Of a stretch of 42,980 nucleotides of DNA, positions 1 through 8,584 are shown one piece after another. This DNA comes from Thermoproteaceae archaeon. Its GTDB lineage: Archaea > Thermoproteota > Thermoprotei > Thermoproteales > Thermoproteaceae. The stretch covers positions 1 to 42,980 of the forward strand of contig JAJHRB010000003.1 in assembly GCA_020833025.1 (NCBI GenBank), written 5' to 3'. A program made the translations under genes and the position numbers. How positions within the stretch are numbered: the first letter of the stretch is position 1; each line of letters opens with the position of its first letter. The notes under the pieces were generated by a model. That model did not search any database, had not been told where the DNA came from, and was given only the letters and a program-made list of their open reading frames with translations.

Positions 1-141
1 GCGGGGGGGGCCCGGGGGGGGGGGGGGGGGGGCGCCGGCTAGGGCGGCCGCGCGCCGCGAGCTCGGCGCAGCCCCCAGGCATGCTCTCGTCGCAGCACGA
101 CACAACGCAAATTATATCAACCCCCCCCCTCCCGGGCGCCC

Positions 142-732
142 GTGGCCAGGAGGAGCTACAAGCCGCTGGTGGCGCTGACTGCGCTGGCAATAGCCGCGCT
201 GGCTGCGGCATCGCTCACGCTGGTGAACGTGACGTACTGGGTCGTCAACGCGACGCTCCCGCCGGCAATGAAGTACGCCGGCTCTGACGTCAACATTGCC
301 GGGGGCAAGTACGTCAAGGTCAGCTACTACTACGACTCCAGAACCGGCTACAACATCACGAGGATATCCGTCGTGGGCTTCACGGGAGACCCGACGAACT
401 ACACTGACGTGATTCGCGTGTGCAACAAGCGCGATGACGTGAGCGCGTCAGTCTACCTGCGCTGGGTGGGCCAGGTGGGCAGCACGGGCTACGAGACGTA
501 CGTCAGGAGGTTCGTGGTAGGGAATACGAGCGGTACAAACGTTAACACCGGCGTTGGCTTCATCGGCAATACAACGCACCCGTACGCCGGGCCCTACACC
601 GTCGGCCCCGGCGGCTGCCTCACGCTCGGCGTGCACGTATTGATCGACCCGGAGCTGCCGTCCGCAGTCGCCGACGGCAAGCATGTGATAGCAACGTATC
701 AGGTCAACGTGGAGGTGCAGTACTCGCAGTAA
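142..732 (+). CDS. Secreted, probably N-glycosylated pilin-like protein (candidate TasA/AbpA- or thread-like donor-strand filament subunit)
   Basis: Basic N-terminus plus hydrophobic signal region, then SLTLVNVTYWVVNATLPP. Beta-rich mature part with 6 NxS/T sequons and one Cys pair. TATA-like TTATAT at 112-117. Confidence 0.65.
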   Translation: MARRSYKPLVALTALAIAALAAASLTLVNVTYWVVNATLPPAMKYAGSDVNIAGGKYVKVSYYYDSRTGYNITRISVVGFTGDPTNYTDVIRVCNKRDDVSASVYLRWVGQVGSTGYETYVRRFVVGNTSGTNVNTGVGFIGNTTHPYAGPYTVGPGGCLTLGVHVLIDPELPSAVADGKHVIATYQVNVEVQYSQ

Positions 733-739
733 GCGCGCA

Positions 740-2002
740 GTGAGGAGCCGGGACAAAGCCCTGCCCCTTTTTTCCGCCGCGGCCCGCCTCAAGAGGGCCC
801 TCCTCCTCTTCCTCCCCGCGCTGGTCTTCGTAATTGCCCTCACGGCGCCTGGGGGCGAGCACGCCTTCAGGGCGGGCCCCCTCGCTGAGGTGTCCGCCGG
901 CCAGGTCCCCCAGTACGTCCACGCGGCAAACAAGACGCTGCACCTCTACAGCTCTCCCTACGCATCCTGGCGGTACCCCGGCGCCGTGGTGGTCAGGCTG
1001 TTCTACCCGACCTCGCTCCTCGCCTCCTCCACGTGCGGCGCGGTGGCAGCGTCCTCCGTCGGCGGGCGGCCAGGAGCCTACCCCGTGGACGTCACGATCC
1101 CGCCTGGATTTCAGGGAGACTGCTGGGTGAACTTCACGCACCCCTCGGGCTGGCGCGACGCCGTGCTCCTCAGGGTCAGGCTGATAGACTGGTACCCGGG
1201 CGCCGGGGAGCGCGCAGTCATTGTGCTGAACGGCACTGGCTGGCAGTTCGTCCAGGTCGGGCATGACGGCACGCTGTACGTCTGGGAGCGGCCCGCGGCA
1301 AGGTCGCCCGTGGCCGGCTGCGTCTTTGTGTTCAACGGGTCGGTCCTTCTGGCCGAGGCCCAGCCCTACAGTGAGGTCGTGCCCGGCGTGATGCCGCCCG
1401 TGACGGCGCCCTCGGGCGCGGGCGCCGTCCGCTACGGCGCGTTCTTGAGCCTCGCCGGCGCCTCCACGCTCTACATATACCGGGCGCCCTGCGCCGTGCT
1501 GGGGAGGCTCAACGTGTCCGGGCCGCCGCCGCTCGCGGCCGAGATAGGCGCGCTCATACCCACGCCCGCGGGCCCGGTCTTCGACGCGCCCCGCGTCGAG
1601 AAGTCTGTGGTGTACAGGTCCGAGCTCAGGGTGATAAACTACAGCGAGGCTGCCGCAAGGACTTACAGGCTGTACGCGTACACGTACAGCACGCCGGTGG
1701 GCCTCTGGGGCGCAGTTCTCCGGCACCACTTCACCCTGACTGCGCTCCTCACGACGAGAGTCTCTCTCTTCAGGCCCGGCGGGGAGCCGGAGAGGGCCGG
1801 CGACGCGTGGGTGTACCACGCTGGGAACGTGAGCTACTGGGTCTACGGGCCGCGGCCCCACTACGTCTGCGAGCCGCCGTGCGGCGTGCCAGCCGGCTGG
1901 CAGGACCCTGTGTACGTTGTGGCAGATCCCACCGGCCAGTGGCGCGGCTGGCCCCAGATACTCGCAATAAGGGGGGAGGTGCTAAAGCCATGGAGGCCGT
2001 AG
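740..2002 (+). CDS. Hypothetical secreted/membrane-anchored protein
   Basis: 420 aa ORF 7 nt after the pilin-like gene; N-terminal hydrophobic helix (ALLLFLPALVFVIALTA); aromatic, beta-rich composition. Confidence 0.7.
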   Translation: MRSRDKALPLFSAAARLKRALLLFLPALVFVIALTAPGGEHAFRAGPLAEVSAGQVPQYVHAANKTLHLYSSPYASWRYPGAVVVRLFYPTSLLASSTCGAVAASSVGGRPGAYPVDVTIPPGFQGDCWVNFTHPSGWRDAVLLRVRLIDWYPGAGERAVIVLNGTGWQFVQVGHDGTLYVWERPAARSPVAGCVFVFNGSVLLAEAQPYSEVVPGVMPPVTAPSGAGAVRYGAFLSLAGASTLYIYRAPCAVLGRLNVSGPPPLAAEIGALIPTPAGPVFDAPRVEKSVVYRSELRVINYSEAAARTYRLYAYTYSTPVGLWGAVLRHHFTLTALLTTRVSLFRPGGEPERAGDAWVYHAGNVSYWVYGPRPHYVCEPPCGVPAGWQDPVYVVADPTGQWRGWPQILAIRGEVLKPWRP

Positions 2003-2231
2003 CGCTACGCAACTTTAACCAGACGCGCATTGCACGCACGGTGAGGCCGAAGACCGCCAGCGCTGGGAACGGCCCCGTCAGATCTGCAATCCTCAGCGCT
2101 GGGAGAGAGGTCCCCTCACCATGGCATATCGTGAGGGCTCTCGGCCCTTGCGGCGCCGTCCAGCGGCGCCTCCACGTAGTCGAGCGGGAGGGCTTGGCGT
2201 TGTCCGTTCACGGGGGCGCGGGCTGTTGCGT

Positions 2232-2651
2232 ATGATCGTCGAGGAGCTGAGGAGGGTTGCGGAGAGGTACGACTGCATTCTATTCGCCACGCTCTTCGGC
2301 TCTGCCGCCGCCGGGAGACGCCACAGACACAGCGACGTAGACGTGGCGGTTTACCTGCGGGAGGGATGCGACCCGCTAGACTTCATCGCCTCCTTCTCCG
2401 CCGACGTGGCCGAGGCGCTGGGAGTGGACGACGTAGACGTCTTGATACTCAACGGGGATCTGCCCTACGAGCTTAGATACAGGGCGCTGACGGGCCGGCT
2501 GATATACGCGCGGGACAGGGAGCGGTATGTGGAGGAGGTTGTAAAGGCCGCCTCGCTCTGGGCGGACTTCCGGATCGCGCTTGAGAAGACTCGCGCGAGA
2601 GAGAAGTTTGCCGAGAGGCTATGGGCAAGATCGAGAGGCTCGCCGCACTAG
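2232..2651 (+). CDS. Minimal nucleotidyltransferase (MNT) antitoxin
   Basis: LFGS...HSDVDVAVY and DVDVLILN motifs; overlaps the downstream HEPN gene. Start moved to ATG 2232. Confidence 0.9.
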   Translation: MIVEELRRVAERYDCILFATLFGSAAAGRRHRHSDVDVAVYLREGCDPLDFIASFSADVAEALGVDDVDVLILNGDLPYELRYRALTGRLIYARDRERYVEEVVKAASLWADFRIALEKTRAREKFAERLWARSRGSPH

Positions 2652-3052
2652 TCGCGAAGAACCTAGAGGCGCTCGACCGGCTCGTGGAGGCCCACGGAGC
2701 GAGAGGCGTCGTGGAGGACTACGTGCTGCTAAACGCAGCGTTGCACCTACTGCAGACTTCAATACAGGCAGTGATAGATGCCGGCATGCACCTACTGGCC
2801 GAGCTGGGCGCGGAGCCGCCGAGCAGATACACGGACGTGCCCAGAAGACTAAAGGAGCTGGGAGTTCTCGCGGAGAAGGACGCAGAGGGGCTCCGCCGCG
2901 TTATCGGCTTTAGAAACGTCGTGGTGCACGGCTACGAAGACCTCAACATTGAGCTAGTCAGAAGAGTTCTGGACGATCGTTTATACCGCGACCTTCAGAA
3001 ATACATGGCCGCTATATACAGCTACGCGCTTGAGAGGGGGATCGACCCCTGA
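2621..3052 (+). CDS. HEPN (DUF86-type) RNase toxin
   Basis: Intact R-x4-H motif (FRNVVVHGY) and LHLLQTSIQAVID; paired with MNT. Confidence 0.9.
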   Translation: MGKIERLAALVAKNLEALDRLVEAHGARGVVEDYVLLNAALHLLQTSIQAVIDAGMHLLAELGAEPPSRYTDVPRRLKELGVLAEKDAEGLRRVIGFRNVVVHGYEDLNIELVRRVLDDRLYRDLQKYMAAIYSYALERGIDP

Positions 3053-3069
3053 GCCGCCGCAACGTTAAG

Positions 3070-3077
3070 TATAAAAT
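3070..3077 (+). promoter_or_regulatory. TATA box of the wHTH regulator operon
   Basis: TATAAAAT about 25-32 nt upstream of GTG 3102. Confidence 0.6.
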
Positions 3078-3101
3078 ATCAGGCAGCGCTTCAGTTCTTC
3101 C

Positions 3102-3767
3102 GTGAACGTCACCGTGCTTATTATTCTTGCGCCTCTGGCTGCCTGGCTGCTCCCGGTGTACGTGCCGCCCAACTCCACGGCGCATGTCACGGCGCACTTG
3201 CCGCCCGGCCTCTGCAACGCCACAGGGACCTTCGCCGTGGAGAGACCCATCGCGATCGCCTGCATCAACCCGTCGACTCAGCCGGCGCTGCTCAGCGGCA
3301 GCGTGGCCGTGGAGTACCCGCGGCCTCCCCCGCCAGAGGCGCCTAAAGCCCCCCGAGACTCCATCCTTGCAGTCGCGCTCGGCGTCGCCGCTGCGGCCGG
3401 CCTCAGCCACCTGCTCGGCAACAGGAGAGAGCTCCTGGCGGCGCTGCCGGCCCTCGCCGCGGCGAGAGTAAAGAGGGCGCTCGGCCTCGAGCACCCCGTC
3501 AGGAGGGAGATTTTCAAGCTGATTGAGAGGGCCGGCGCGATGACGCCCTCCCAGATAGCTAGGGCGCTGGGCAAGAGCTTGGGGTCCGTGCAGTGGCACC
3601 TGTTCGTCTTGGAACGCGAGGGGAGAGTGAGGTCCGTGAGGGTGGGCCCCTTCACGTACTACTTCATAGACCCGAGTGCTGCCGCGGAGGTCATCCTGTC
3701 GTCCGTCGACCCGGCACTGCTGAGCCCCGAGGACAGGGAGAAGCTTGAGCTCATGGCCTCGCAATGA
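3102..3767 (+). CDS. Membrane-anchored winged-helix transcriptional regulator
   Basis: N-terminal hydrophobic segment, small Cys-pair domain, second TM (ILAVALGVAAAAGL), C-terminal wHTH (LEHPVRREIFKLI...TPSQIARALGKSLGSVQWHLFVLEREGRV). Confidence 0.85.
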   Translation: MNVTVLIILAPLAAWLLPVYVPPNSTAHVTAHLPPGLCNATGTFAVERPIAIACINPSTQPALLSGSVAVEYPRPPPPEAPKAPRDSILAVALGVAAAAGLSHLLGNRRELLAALPALAAARVKRALGLEHPVRREIFKLIERAGAMTPSQIARALGKSLGSVQWHLFVLEREGRVRSVRVGPFTYYFIDPSAAAEVILSSVDPALLSPEDREKLELMASQ

Positions 3768-5935
3768 GCCGCGCGGCCGCCGCGCTGCTGCTTTTAGGGG
3801 CCGTCGCCCTCCTCGCCTCCCTGGCATTCCTCAACGTGGCGCAGACCGCGGTCAACGCATCGCTGCCGCCCGTCTCCAAGCGCCTCAACGCCTCTCTGGC
3901 GCCCCTCGCAGGCGCCTGGTGGGACGCCGCCGACGGCTACAACGTGACTCACTACAGCATGAAGTTCGTGCCTGGCTGGCCCGAGCTGTACACTGTCGGA
4001 ATGTTCGCTCCCACGCGCGCGGGCTGGGAGGCGAGGCTTGAGAAGCTGGCCCAAGTAGGCACGGCCACATACGCCATAGCTCTAGGCGGCGTGACGCAGA
4101 TAACAGAAAGCCAGGGCGCCGGGCCTTACGTGGCCATCGGCCAGAACACGCCGCTGGACTGGTACATTTACGGCAGTCAGCGCCTCTCCGTCCTAGCCTA
4201 TGCATGGTTCCGGCAGGGAGGCATCACCGCAATCCAGCTCATGAACTTCACGGCGGAGCCCATGGCCAGGCTCTACAGCCAGACCTTCTCCTGTCCCCCC
4301 TCCACACATGCAGACGGCTTCTCGGACTACTGCACGACGTACGCCACGGGCTTCCCGGACGCGTCTTTGCTTAAGTTCTACACTTGGAGCGCTGCAGGCG
4401 GAAGCGAGGCTTACCTGGACGAGTCTTTCGGCAACCCGAAGCCCTCGGTCTACACCGAGGGGAAGAACGGCTACGGCGCGGCGTTTGTGAACCTCACGCG
4501 GTGGATTGGCGGCCTCCCGGCTACGGGAAACCTCACGGTCCAGTACTACCTCCAGGCGGCAATAACCGGCGGGGACTACTTGCAGCTCAACTTCTTCGTG
4601 GACACGGACGGGGACGGTAGGCCGGACGTGGAGGTCGTCTACTACATGTCTGTTAGAGGGAGGGAGCCGGCCTGCCTCTCCTCTGCGATATACGGCTACT
4701 CCATCACCTGCATCTCGATGTTGTACTCCTCTCAAAGTCCCCCCATTAAGACGTGGCTCGACTGGACCGTCACCAAGATCTACGACTACGGCACTGTGGT
4801 GGGCCTTGCCCTCGTCACGTACTCGCCGAACGGCGACACGAAGAGCTGGTGGGATAACTTGAGGGCCGTCAAGTGCATGCTGCCCCCCGCCGTGTCGACG
4901 TACGTCAGAGGGTGGCAGTACACGCAGGTGTACATCAGCCCCAGCACAAGCCCCACCTCTCCGCCCTCTCTCGCCACGGAGGTGGACGCCTACGGCAGCA
5001 CCGGGAGTGTGTATGCAGACTGGGGCGCCGCCGTTGCCAGGTACAGCCTGCCGCAGCCCGTCCCGGCCTACAGCACCACGGTGTCTGTGCAAGGCAGATA
5101 CGTGAGGGATTCGGCGGATGTGCAGAACAACGTCGCCTACGTCTCAATCGGCGTGGATACTGACGGCGACGGGATTGTGGACAGGGAGTACATTGTCTAC
5201 CGGCACGACGTGGCCGCTGGCCAGACAGGCGTAATCGTGTCTGCCTTCTTCGCAGACTCCAGCGGCAGCCCCCTGGTGGTCTGCACAGTAGACAGCAGCG
5301 GCGCCTGCACGCCCGGCGACTCCAGGTTTGCCGTCATCAACGCGGGCGCCATGGCCACGGGCAATAACTATCTGTGGAGCTACACGCTGTACGAGCGGGG
5401 CGCCGTAATTGCGGTCGCGCTTGCCGCGGCGGACGCCTCGGGCCGCGCAGACGGCACCGCCGACGACTTCTGGATCTACTGGGACGACCTGACAGTGCAG
5501 TACAGCGCGTGTCCCCCGCCGGGCGGCTGGGGCGCGAGCGGTAAGTACGTCTGGCAGAGCTACGGCTACCTGCTGGTCTCCGGCTCGGCAGCTGCGTATA
5601 GGACGCTGGTCGCAAATGCCCTGACATACGTTGCTAACTTCTCCGGCTTGGGGACATATGCAGTCTTTGACTCCTCGCTCAGCCCGATATTCGGCGTCTC
5701 AGTGAACGGCTCCTCCTTTACCGCGCTTTGTGGCCCCTCCTCTGTCCCGCTCGGCTCCCTGCCCTCGGCGGTGTGGGTGGAGCTCAGGCCGCTGAATGGT
5801 CTCGGCGATGTCATAATCAGGGACCAGTACGGCAGCGTGCTGGCGAGACACGGCTGCCGGTACGCAGCCGCTCCGCAGTACGTGGGGTTCAGGGGCGGGC
5901 TGCTGAGAGTATATAACATCACGGCGCTGGGATGA
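3764..5935 (+). CDS. Large secreted adhesin-like protein with pilin-like N-terminus and a duplicated DTDGDG domain
   Basis: Signal peptide, SLAFLNVAQTAVNASLPP, two VDTDGDG motifs 185 aa apart; ATGA overlap with the upstream gene. Confidence 0.75.
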   Translation: MSRAAAALLLLGAVALLASLAFLNVAQTAVNASLPPVSKRLNASLAPLAGAWWDAADGYNVTHYSMKFVPGWPELYTVGMFAPTRAGWEARLEKLAQVGTATYAIALGGVTQITESQGAGPYVAIGQNTPLDWYIYGSQRLSVLAYAWFRQGGITAIQLMNFTAEPMARLYSQTFSCPPSTHADGFSDYCTTYATGFPDASLLKFYTWSAAGGSEAYLDESFGNPKPSVYTEGKNGYGAAFVNLTRWIGGLPATGNLTVQYYLQAAITGGDYLQLNFFVDTDGDGRPDVEVVYYMSVRGREPACLSSAIYGYSITCISMLYSSQSPPIKTWLDWTVTKIYDYGTVVGLALVTYSPNGDTKSWWDNLRAVKCMLPPAVSTYVRGWQYTQVYISPSTSPTSPPSLATEVDAYGSTGSVYADWGAAVARYSLPQPVPAYSTTVSVQGRYVRDSADVQNNVAYVSIGVDTDGDGIVDREYIVYRHDVAAGQTGVIVSAFFADSSGSPLVVCTVDSSGACTPGDSRFAVINAGAMATGNNYLWSYTLYERGAVIAVALAAADASGRADGTADDFWIYWDDLTVQYSACPPPGGWGASGKYVWQSYGYLLVSGSAAAYRTLVANALTYVANFSGLGTYAVFDSSLSPIFGVSVNGSSFTALCGPSSVPLGSLPSAVWVELRPLNGLGDVIIRDQYGSVLARHGCRYAAAPQYVGFRGGLLRVYNITALG

Positions 5936-6420
5936 GCGAGGCCAGGCGCGGGGCGGGGGGAAGAAGGCGCGCGGCCGCGCTGGCCGTCCTCGGCGCCGCG
6001 GTAATAGTTGCGCTCCTGTTGAGCACGGCACGCGCGCCGGCTGCCGCGTCGCTCCCGCCCGCGGCGCCTGAAGGGACAGGGGCCGCCGTCCTGGTCGGGC
6101 TCAACGGCACCCAGACCTTCCGCCTGTGGGCCCCGCCTGGCCACGCCGCGCTCTGGGACGTGCTCTTCTGCAACGCGGCCGGCGCTAACGTGACAGTCGC
6201 GGTCAGGCCCCTGAGCGCGCCCCGGGAGGTCAGGCAGTTTCTATTCCATGTCGGCGACGCCTCGTTCGGCTGGGACGGCAGGAGCGCGAGAGAGTGGCAC
6301 GCCGCGCTGGCGCCTGGAGAGTGCGCCCGCGGCGCGCTGGAGGTTCTCGTCGACGGCCGCGCCCCCGCCAATACGGTGTACGTCGTGGCCGTCGAGGTGG
6401 TAGCATGGGTCTCGGGGTGA
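5932..6420 (+). CDS. Small secreted protein (minor pilin/accessory candidate)
   Basis: Signal-like N-terminus, AAASLPP, terminal beta strand (VYVVAVEVVAWV); ATGA overlap with the upstream gene. Confidence 0.7.
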   Translation: MSEARRGAGGRRRAAALAVLGAAVIVALLLSTARAPAAASLPPAAPEGTGAAVLVGLNGTQTFRLWAPPGHAALWDVLFCNAAGANVTVAVRPLSAPREVRQFLFHVGDASFGWDGRSAREWHAALAPGECARGALEVLVDGRAPANTVYVVAVEVVAWVSG

Positions 6421-6684
6421 CGCGTTAAGGATATTCGCGGCGCGATCCTGCCGGCGCCATAGTGGAGAGGCTGAAGGCTGCGGGCTTGGTGCCTGAATAC
6501 CCCTGGACGGCACTGCGCGCGGTAGCTGCAGACGGGGCGGGAGGCGCCGGCCGCGCGCCCAGACGGGAATCCCCGTCGCGCCACAGCAGGGGCCCGTGCG
6601 GCGCAGGCGATCCAGCGCCTGGCCCAGGCCCGCAGGCGGGAGCGCCCACGGCCGCCGACAGTTACTGCCGGCGGGGAAACGCGC

Positions 6685-7295
6685 GTCGCGGAGAGGCACG
6701 GCTGCGTTGAGTTCGCCACGCTCTTCGGCTCCGCGGCGACAAGCCGGCGGCACGCTCACAGCGACGACCTGCCCTACGAGTTCAGGTACAGGGCGCTGGC
6801 CGGCCGCATGATTTACGCGCGGGACAGGGAGCGGCACGTGGAGGGAGTTGTGAGGGCTGCACCCCCTGGGCCGACCTGCAGATAGCGCTCTGGAAGACGC
6901 GCGAGGGAGAAGTTCGCCGAGAGGCTGTGGGCAAGGTCGAGAGACTCGTCGCGCTAGTTGCGAAGAACACGGGGCGAGAAAGGTCGTGGAGGGCTGTGTG
7001 CTGCTAAACGCAGCGCTGCACCTCTTGCAGACATCAATACAGGCGGTGATGGACGCTGCCATACACCTCGCCGCAGGGCCGGGCAGGTACAGCGGCGTGC
7101 CGAGGGCGCTGAGAGAACTGGGAGTCCTGCGGGAGGAGGACGCCGGGGGCTCCGCCGCGCCGTAGGCTTTAGGAACGCCGCCGTTAACGGCTACGCAGAT
7201 TTCAACATGGAACTCGTCGAGAGGATCTCTAGCGCCTGTCTCTGCCGCGACCTCCTGCGGTACGCCTCGGCGATTTACAGCGGCGCGCTAGAGGT
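6685..7295 (+). pseudogene. Decayed duplicate of the MNT-HEPN pair at 2232-3052
   Basis: Clear nucleotide similarity (e.g. ttcgccacgctcttcggctc, gagaagttcgccgagaggctgtgggcaagg) with an internal deletion, frameshifts and RNVVVH changed to RNAAVN. Boundaries approximate. Confidence 0.85.
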
Positions 7296-7543
7296 GACTC
7301 CCGCGCGGCCTCTAGCCATCTAAAACGTCTGGCTGGGCCGGGCGTGTGAGATATTGTCGAGCCCACCGTGATGGTGTTGGAGCTTCACAGGTACCAGCGC
7401 AACGGGCCTGACTCCGAGGGCTTTTTCTCTGGAATTCCTGACGACAGACCGGCTGCAGTGCTTGTGTGCACGCCCGCGGGAAGGATTGTTAGCTGCGAGG
7501 ACATCTACAAGAGGGTCTGCGGCCCCTCGCGCAGCTAACGCCG

Positions 7544-7936
7544 CTACGCGTGAAGCGGCAGCGGGACTGCCGGCGGCACCGGCTCCGGCTCGTGCCACAC
7601 TAATGCGCCGATTAGCGCCAGCGCGGCGAGCGCTATTATCAGCGCCAGCAGGGCTCTCAGCGGGTCAACCCCCGCGATGAGAGACAGTGTTGCCAGCGAG
7701 AGCAGAAAGCCGGAGAGCAGCGCGACGGGGAGCGCGATGATTGCGAGCGCGGGGAGGAGCGCGGCAGAGAGCGCGAGCGCGACCAGCGCGGCCACGAGGC
7801 CCAGCAGGAACGCCGGGGGAGCCAGGATAGCGCCGAGCGCGACGCGCAGCGGGTTAACGACGCGCCGCTCCAGCAGGCTCATTGCAAGCCAGAGAATCAG
7901 CACGAACGCCAGGAACCAGACGAGCAGCTCCAGCAC
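7544..7936 (-). CDS. Hypothetical multi-pass membrane protein
   Basis: 130 aa, almost entirely hydrophobic helices. Confidence 0.75.
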   Translation of the reverse strand: MLELLVWFLAFVLILWLAMSLLERRVVNPLRVALGAILAPPAFLLGLVAALVALALSAALLPALAIIALPVALLSGFLLSLATLSLIAGVDPLRALLALIIALAALALIGALVWHEPEPVPPAVPLPLHA

Positions 7937-7971: not shown

Positions 7972-8584
7972 TTACAACTTACTGAGCGCGAGCGCGAACG
8001 CGCCAGTCGCCAGCGCAATGATGAGGAACACGGCGGCTGGATTGTCGGCAAGCGGGAGCCACTTGAGATTCATGCCGTACACGCTAGATATTAGTAGTGC
8101 CGGCACGGCGACGGTCCCGAGCCACGTCAGCCTCCTAACAGACCTCTCGAGGGACAGCAGCGTCACGACTCTGGCGTACCCGCGGACCCTGCGCGCGCCC
8201 CTCAGCACCGCCCTGGCGCGGGCGTAGAGCCTCCGCGGCACACGGCCGGCGCCCAGCAGGTCTTCAGCGACGTCGTGAACCTGATACGCTGCGTGGAGGA
8301 GCGCGTGCGCCGCGTAGACGGCGCGGTGGAGCTTGCGCGGGCCGGCCCGCCCCCAATTCTCCAGCGCGTACTCCAGCTGCTCTAGAGCCTGCTCCACCGG
8401 CTCGAGCGATTTCTCGAGACTCTCAAGTGACGCGCGGAGGGCGTCCTCAAGCGTCGGGAAGGGCCCCCCCGATCACCCTGCCGGACGCGTCGGCAACGAC
8501 CTCTACCTCCTCCTCGACGAGCTCTCCCTCCCTGACGCTGACGAGGGGCAGGCGAAGAGTCAGGCGGCCCTCGCTCTGTGCCAT
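7972..8584 (-). pseudogene. CorA-family divalent cation transporter-like gene, frameshifted (+1) at a G7 run
   Basis: C-terminal YGMN signature between two TMs. The upstream ATG (8584) frame joins the downstream frame if one base is removed from the C7 run at 8464-8470; total 613 nt = 3n+1. Confidence 0.7.

Follow-up and report, generated by a model that had tools for sequence, protein, structure and literature searches.

How chaperone-free archaeal filaments built by donor-strand complementation start, end and attach to the cell is an open question, raised by Wang et al. (2022, PMC9245690) for the archaeal bundling pilus (ABP), in whose system they described neither a chaperone nor an usher and for which they proposed AbpB, speculatively, as a possible strand provider. 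A locus that bears on this question lies at positions 142-6420 of the window analysed here, by which we mean the whole stretch of 42,980 nucleotides (nt) formed by positions 1 to 42,980 of the forward strand of contig JAJHRB010000003.1 (assembly GCA_020833025.1, Thermoproteaceae archaeon). A preliminary description of this window had proposed that three secreted proteins encoded at the locus, ORF142, ORF3764 and ORF5932, share an N-terminal motif that lets them polymerise into one filament. Here we identify ORF142 as the pilin AbpA, report that ORF3764 carries an AbpA-type donor strand in front of an AbpA-like domain, and argue that the latter protein probably occupies one end of the ABP filament.

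Identity of the locus and of its major pilin

Judged by homology and gene order, the region 142-6420 is an ortholog, in a Pyrobaculum-type archaeon, of the published ABP operon. In Pyrobaculum calidifontis this operon comprises Pcal_0910 to Pcal_0903, and the filament formed by its pilin AbpA is available as PDB entry 7UEG (Wang et al. 2022, PMC9245690). The P. calidifontis operon was identified via the 204-amino-acid (aa) open reading frame (ORF) that reads the 7UEG sequence and was compared gene by gene with ours: the five pilus genes stand in identical order and all five are orthologous, with identities of 53% for abpA, 46% for abpB, 60% for the gene of a transmembrane winged helix-turn-helix (wHTH) regulator, 38% over 752 columns for Pcal_0904 and 48% over 104 residues for Pcal_0903. 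The distal order of wHTH regulator, large beta-rich protein and small protein is that of the canonical eight-gene ABP operon of the Thermoproteales, and ATGA overlaps couple the regulator gene to ORF3764 and ORF3764 to ORF5932. The locus adds one more case to a system already in print and is of no new type.

The major bundling pilin is encoded by ORF142 (142..732, forward strand, 196 aa), of which residues 3-191 were aligned by phmmer to residues 4-199 of 7ueg_A with an E value of 3.4e-60, and whose 197 homologs, where named, come from Pyrobaculum. A Kyte-Doolittle-type scan gives a single hydrophobic segment, at the N-terminus, and a cleavable Sec signal peptide is predicted: the stretch AAA followed by SLTLVNVTYWVVNATLPP aligns with AMA followed by TLTFTNLTYWLINATLPP in the 7UEG pilin, whose mature N-terminus is T25, with cleavage between AMA and TL (PMC9245690). 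The protein can be divided into a signal peptide (residues 1-23), a donor strand (24-38) and an LPPAMKY linker (39-45). Strand and linker together, SLTLVNVTYWVVNATLPPAMKY (211..276, forward strand), include sequons at N29 and N36 and align with TLTFTNLTYWLINATLPPAMKY of 7UEG. Cryo-EM of the P. calidifontis filament identified this N-terminal strand as strand B of the jelly roll, inserted into the next subunit, and placed a glycan on its N37 (PMC9245690). By this alignment, the motif noticed in ORF142 is the AbpA donor strand as defined by cryo-EM, and the guess of a donor-strand pilus that had been founded on it was right. After secretion, AbpA would be cut by the general signal peptidase and would polymerise by its strand 24-38 entering the groove of the next subunit, as shown for the P. 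calidifontis ortholog and as orthology leads us to expect here.

Several relatives carry a second AbpA paralog (approximately 38-41% identity, strand AVSVINVTYWYVNTTAPPVIKY) between abpA and abpB (L021:1217-1798 of relative G008; also loci L022 and L023). None was found in the genome studied here, which was searched as an assembly of 1.56 Mb that is 94% complete.

A donor strand shared by AbpA and the large protein

Residues 24-44 of ORF142, SLTLVNVTYWVVNATLPPAMK (core at nt 226-264), and residues 19-39 of ORF3764, SLAFLNVAQTAVNASLPPVSK (3818..3880, forward strand; core at nt 3833-3871), are identical at 11 of 21 positions. Both the coordinates and the identity count had been given correctly in the preliminary description. 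In both proteins the motif comes directly behind a single N-terminal hydrophobic segment; in ORF3764 it follows a predicted cleavage site between A18 and S19. The match is far above chance. The two proteins find each other by BLASTP (E 8e-5 over 60 residues), and within this alignment the strand is identical at 9 of 16 positions against approximately 25% elsewhere, so that the strand is the most AbpA-like part of ORF3764. Profile-profile alignment of the two families with hhalign gives a probability of 97.1% (E 5.8e-11) over approximately 97 columns, joining AbpA 9-115 to ORF3764 5-101. The view that the sequences downstream of the motif look unrelated was mistaken for this pair, as homology spans approximately 100 residues and the domain that opens ORF3764 is folded like AbpA.

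Searches of the whole genome single out the same two proteins. The core pattern [VIL]N[AGV][ST].PP..K occurs, in all six frames, in ORF142 and ORF3764 only. A position-specific scoring matrix (PSSM) made solely from the AbpA strands of other species and scored at 1,019,080 positions of the genome ranks AbpA first (65.7) and position 19 of ORF3764 second (5.8), the third-ranking position scoring -11.1; the best scores within AbpB, the regulator and ORF5932 are all at chance level.

The motif is also kept across 50 orthologs of ORF3764, in which A18, N24 and P36 are invariant and V30, N31, A32, L34 and K39 nearly so. The consensus N-terminus of the family reads LTFLNVxRLxVNATLPPVSKNLN directly after an A that corresponds to the invariant A18, the -1 position of the predicted cleavage, and its near-invariant NA[ST] sequon is homologous to the glycosylated N37 of AbpA. 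Some species have large proteins in which the strand is almost that of AbpA itself, for example FFNVTYWRVNATLPPVMK. An AbpA query matches the N-termini of large proteins in 12 genomes from two genera (the present genome included), and each of these proteins is encoded 3-6 kb from abpA. A candidate internal copy of the motif at residues 157-170 of ORF3764 (IQLMNFTAEPMARL) was rejected for want of significance: at a null fraction of 0.0025 per scored position, more than one such match is expected per protein.

Fold of the large protein and a model of its complex with AbpA

ORF3764 (3764..5935, forward strand, 723 aa) corresponds to the 754-aa product of Pcal_0904 and has 86 homologs; those with a named source belong to Pyrobaculum, Thermoproteus and Thermofilum. 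Behind the strand come a predicted AbpA-like beta-sandwich, referred to here as domain 1 (residues 40-200; 3881..4363), and three more beta-rich domains (4364..5935) with the look of carbohydrate-binding modules (CBM) or jelly rolls when compared with the PDB by Foldseek, two of which carry DTDGDG loops, near residues 280 and 465. The AlphaFold2 model of the whole protein has a mean predicted local distance difference test (pLDDT) score of 90.8, its weak part being residues 23-33, and when residues 19-200 are modelled alone residues 19-35 fall below 50. With a pLDDT under 50 in either monomer model, the strand is not confidently packed in cis.

Comparison of folds, which the preliminary description had suggested, returned the AbpA structure as the best match to domain 1. 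When residues 34-153 were compared with 48,161 PDB chains by VIA-align, 7ueg_A came top with a Z score of 10.8 (root-mean-square deviation 2.5 A over 120 residues, 21% identity), followed by a next match at 8.9; the Sulfolobus thread subunit scored 7.8. Foldseek likewise matched domain 1 to 7ueg_A (E 7e-4, TM-scores 0.49/0.50). For the whole 723-aa model, Foldseek returned reelin repeats and tandem CBM22 domains (E 1e-7 to 1e-9, low TM-scores), which are generic likenesses. No TapA chain is among the structural matches listed for domain 1 by Foldseek or VIA-align, nor did Pfam or NCBIfam link it to TapA; these two collections hold no match for ORF142, ORF740, ORF3764 or ORF5932.

Hetero-oligomer modelling, also suggested beforehand, placed the ORF3764 strand in the groove of an AbpA deprived of its own strand. 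AbpA 40-196 and ORF3764 19-200, both with family alignments, gave an interface score (ipSAE, interaction prediction score from aligned errors) of 0.74 (0.77, 0.74 and 0.68 in the individual runs), against 0.00 for the best of three controls. The mark used for this score is reached by 58 of 80 solved complexes and by 2 of 110 mismatched pairs, counts that hold roughly here because our own alignments were used. The runs share at least 96% of contacts, and the pLDDT of the partners is at least 74. In the model, ORF3764 residues 19-36 sit between AbpA 70-89 and 176-194: residues 26-34 contact AbpA 73-81 and residues 25-31 contact AbpA 189-182 (overall, 25-34 with 73-81 and 182-189). The strand runs parallel to the AbpA hairpin strand and antiparallel to the C-terminal strand, in the groove between these two, which is the place described for strand B in 7UEG, beside strand I and the extra hairpin (PMC9245690). 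The model suggests that the ORF3764 strand is AbpA-like enough for the groove, which falls short of binding as such.

Paralogs without the strand

Paralogs of the Pisl_1407 type are 55% identical to ORF3764 over everything from residue 41 to its C-terminus. Where ORF3764 has residues 19-40 they have a Pro-rich linker, and before this linker come approximately 480 other residues that begin with RGLSTV and a hydrophobic stretch. A profile of domain 1 matches these proteins only from profile positions 22-27 onward. Because the paralogs keep the body and replace the strand, residues 19-40 behave as a separable docking element. One relative (G005) encodes a 1167-aa paralog of this kind (L028:8895-12398), with the ORF3764 body from residue 41 (55% identity) and without the donor strand, whose neighbours (3562-7682) are T2SSE, two T2SSF genes and a KaiC-like ATPase gene. 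This relative thus seems to employ the ORF3764 body in a locus resembling those of type IV pili. Pfam and NCBIfam gave no confirmation that the RGLSTV N-terminus is that of a type IV pilin, a view for which the neighbouring T2SSE and T2SSF genes are the only support.

Role of the large protein and competing explanations

We propose that ORF3764 is a paralogous, TapA-like, donor-strand-bearing terminal subunit of the ABP filament (its initiator, its anchor or its tip adhesin), a reading that draws on homology, fold, conservation and synteny and that we hold to be probable, if some way from certain. Following an AbpA-like signal peptide, the protein would present the same donor strand, an AbpA-like beta-sandwich and three extra beta-rich domains. 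In vivo, its free N-terminal strand would plug in trans into the open groove of the terminal AbpA subunit, and one large ORF3764 protein would thereby be placed at the groove end of the filament, where it would either do for AbpA what TapA does for TasA, initiating and/or anchoring the filament, or serve as a tip adhesin. Domain 1 is probably self-sufficient, because the paralogs keep the body without the strand, and ORF3764 would then be a donor only. The ORF5932 protein, encoded in the operon and lacking the shared strand, may be a membrane-side partner. We make no choice between a distal tip adhesin, an initiator and a cell-proximal anchor, the last of which would fit especially well if the signal peptide stays uncut.

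A further step, which we offer tentatively, is that TapA has its functional equivalent in the Pcal_0904 family and not in AbpB: the family would act as donor only, start or anchor the filament and fix its polarity, and its four-domain body would be a portable cargo, carried in the course of evolution either on an ABP strand or on a type-IV-pilin-like N-terminus encoded beside a cluster of type IV pilus assembly genes. ORF3764 fits the logic of TapA better than AbpB does because AbpB has no strand-like motif.

Several points weigh against placing ORF3764 in the filament. The published ABP map is accounted for by AbpA only, and Wang et al., who describe Pcal_0904 simply as an N-terminal transmembrane domain with a large beta-rich ectodomain, take for membrane-spanning the segment that we predict to be cleaved, so that cleavage is uncertain (PMC9245690). 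A toxin-antitoxin pair of the MntA/HepT type splits the big gene from abpA and abpB, and the canonical two genes for four-transmembrane (4-TM) proteins are missing from the window. A HMMER profile of domain 1 (9 sequences), run against 1.84 billion representative proteins, found 31 proteins, apparently all family members, fragments or strand-less paralogs, and no AbpA or full match of AbpA length at E <= 0.001, so that the link between AbpA and ORF3764 rests on the pairwise, profile-profile and structural evidence. Domain 1 may have an open groove or a closed one: its VIA alignment to 7ueg_A stops at model residue 135, with strand 154-166 (full numbering) left unmatched. The complex model may, finally, be a memory of the solved 7UEG structure or restate the likeness of the sequences, the strand of AbpA itself having been removed.

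Other points on the same side suit an independent surface adhesin or envelope protein that arose by duplication of AbpA and whose strand completes its own domain 1 in cis or is vestigial, never entering AbpA. Homology spans the whole first domain, so the motif was possibly inherited and not selected for docking in trans, and its conservation could come from common descent together with use in cis; DSSP draws residues 27-34 of the domain-1 model as a strand, at low confidence; the strand-less paralogs indicate that the body can work without it; and the ORF3764 part of the locus has a putative promoter of its own. We nevertheless think this reading unlikely, since the strand is more AbpA-like than the remainder of the protein and in some species nearly identical to that of AbpA, since it is poorly predicted in cis yet confidently placed in the AbpA groove while the controls fail, and since the gene stays close to abpA in two genera. 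Far less probable is a homopolymer of ORF3764, a separate and thicker filament or mesh formed by donor-strand exchange, in which the AbpA-like domain would be the pilin module and the other domains its decoration. ORF3764 does have both a donor strand and an AbpA-like domain, and ABP preparations contain thin single filaments forming a mesh besides bundles; however, no acceptor groove is demonstrated, the strand-less paralogs suggest a self-sufficient domain, and a 723-aa subunit is unseen in those preparations (PMC9245690).

The model with which the preliminary description began, in which the 196-, 723- and 162-aa secreted proteins all carry a polymerisation strand and join one filament through it, now has very little probability left. 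It gains something from the conservation and translational coupling of ORF5932 as an operon gene, from the hydrophobic segment at its N-terminus and from fold leads in the Atlas (TasA, DUF1102 and Ig-like only), all below the reliable range. The AAASLPP of ORF5932 (6040-6060), which had been taken for a shorter form of the motif, lies however in a variable Gly/Ala-rich linker and is conserved in none of 8 orthologs, and the best PSSM score of the protein is one expected by chance 0.45 times per protein. The hhalign probability between ORF5932 and AbpA is 9% and BLASTP gives no N-terminal match; against AbpA or ORF3764, BLASTP, PSSM and hhalign are all negative. Of the single filament, then, the part that finds support is the joining of the 723-aa protein to AbpA via the same strand, as suggested by homology, fold and a controlled complex model, and the part that does not is the inclusion of ORF5932 by such a motif. 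Some other mode of binding to the filament, such as taking up a strand, is conceivable for ORF5932.

The placement of ORF3764 at a filament end, if correct, would bear on the question of Wang et al. with a specific conserved candidate: the data point to the Pcal_0904 family, with a defined 18-residue docking strand, as one that can be tested directly. The strand-less paralogs also suggest that filament systems unrelated to each other exchange large adhesin bodies. In the literature searched, Pcal_0904 is mentioned by Wang et al. only, its strand unremarked; the role proposed here for its family appears undescribed, the principle of strand-complementing tip or minor subunits being already known.

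Other genes and features of the locus

ORF5932 (5932..6420, forward strand, 162 aa) is the Pcal_0903-like protein. In it, an N-terminal transmembrane helix is joined by a Gly/Ala linker to a beta domain of approximately 110 aa that looks Ig-like. In relatives its gene lies directly downstream of the big gene, and 14 of the 17 other genomes of the genus have a match to it. Pcal_0903 was listed among proteins with four predicted transmembrane domains (PMC9245690). We find one N-terminal hydrophobic segment in ORF5932 (Kyte-Doolittle) and, by eye, also one in the Pcal_0903-type protein of P. calidifontis (L026:471-995).

The gene abpB (ORF740; 740..2002, forward strand) starts 8 nt past the abpA stop and encodes a TapA-like secreted protein of 420 aa without the donor-strand motif; its identity of 46% to the 410-aa gene downstream of P. 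calidifontis abpA extends over 411 aa. In the relative G008, abpB (L021:1728-3034) appears as two ORFs of 283 and 150 aa, which points to a frameshift, to a pseudogene or to an error in sequencing. The wHTH regulator (3102..3767, forward strand, 221 aa) is a membrane-spanning, Pcal_0905-like protein with two hydrophobic segments and a Pfam HTH_20 match (E 2.2e-10).

Between abpB and the regulator gene lie an MntA-type nucleotidyltransferase antitoxin (2121..2651, forward strand; NCBIfam NF047752, E 5.3e-18; Pfam Polbeta, E 3.9e-16) and a HepT-type RNase toxin (2621..3052, forward strand; NCBIfam NF047751, E 2e-24; Pfam HepT-like, E 9.4e-24). From these family matches the pair is predicted to be a complete type VII toxin-antitoxin insertion, outside the pilus system. 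At this place (2121-3052) relatives have two 4-TM genes, joined in P. calidifontis by a GTPase gene. The first 4-TM protein was not found in this genome, the completeness of which does not allow its absence from the organism to be implied; a 33-residue fragment of the second (58% identity) stands at the very start of contig C36 (C36:5-103, L025), in frame into an unrelated gene; it could be a remnant or mark a break in the assembly. A short way past the end of the operon, a 121-aa ORF (6958-7323) weakly resembles HepT at its C-terminus (Pfam E 0.0073, which misses the cut-off) and is visibly similar to the HepT gene at 2621-3052, of which it is probably a decayed second copy. Further on, a 141-aa ORF on the reverse strand (7972-8397) matches in Pfam the C-terminal membrane part of CorA only (E 2.2e-10, profile positions 203-286 of 292), which would make it either a truncated or a mini CorA-like gene.

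Two TATA-like boxes can be read on the forward strand. The box aaattatat (109..117), approximately 28-29 nt before the GTG at 142, is by archaeal promoter geometry the putative promoter of a leaderless or short-leader abpA transcript, and aagtataaaatat (3067..3079), approximately 28 nt before the regulator GTG (3102), is a putative second promoter. The contig opens with a long, homopolymer-like run of G/C (1-40), probably an artefact of the assembly end, which stops approximately 70 nt before the abpA box.

A dedicated S26 peptidase of the SipW type, which might have been expected just upstream, was not found in the window, where upstream of abpA the contig ends and nothing more can be read. 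The genome has a single match to the archaeal signal peptidase I (TIGR02228), on contig C88, and in 5 of 5 complete relatives this gene is hundreds of kb from the ABP locus, in agreement with Wang et al.

Comparison with known systems

The closest system is the ABP of P. calidifontis itself, which has the same donor-strand sequence and sequons and likewise no dedicated peptidase nearby. It differs in having two 4-TM genes and a GTPase gene where the MntA/HepT pair stands here. Where the P. calidifontis paper proposes AbpB as strand provider, we find the AbpA-type strand and fold on the Pcal_0904 family, not on AbpB.

Tip or minor subunits predicted to co-assemble by donor-strand complementation have been described for abpX loci (bioRxiv 10.64898/2026.01.04.697558) and, as TafC and TafF, for Tafi (PMC12337348). 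As here, multi-domain tip proteins and transmembrane-anchored jelly-roll proteins are encoded beside the major pilin, the families being different. No assignment of a tip or minor subunit for an AbpA-type locus was found in the literature searched.

In TapA the N-terminus is similar to the donor strand of TasA, has been modelled in the TasA groove and nucleates fibres, and since the fold of TapA is itself complete the protein acts only at the fibre start (Bohning 2022, PMC9674648; Roske 2023, PMC10151520). The pair TapA-TasA of Bacillus subtilis is like ORF3764-AbpA in that the locus of the major subunit also encodes a secreted accessory protein whose N-terminus resembles the donor strand of that subunit. 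TapA differs in having no sequence relation to ORF3764, whose domain 1 resembles AbpA and not the Ig-like domain of TapA; ORF3764 is also three times the size of TapA, has extra CBM-like domains and no accompanying SipW, and its function is deduced here from sequence and models.

Chaperone-usher pili have a sub-stoichiometric terminal subunit joined by strand complementation, either at the tip (FimH, FmlH) or as a terminator (PapH), and to the latter ORF3764 may also be likened. Domain 1 resembles proteins of these pili in Foldseek (lectin domains of FmlH and FimH, E approximately 1e-4, TM-score approximately 0.4) and in VIA-align (Z scores of 6-7.5 to CfaE, CupB6 and chaperones). This likeness is at the level of fold only, the ABP locus having neither chaperone nor usher. 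FimH, moreover, offers an acceptor groove and no donor strand, whereas ORF3764 has a donor strand.

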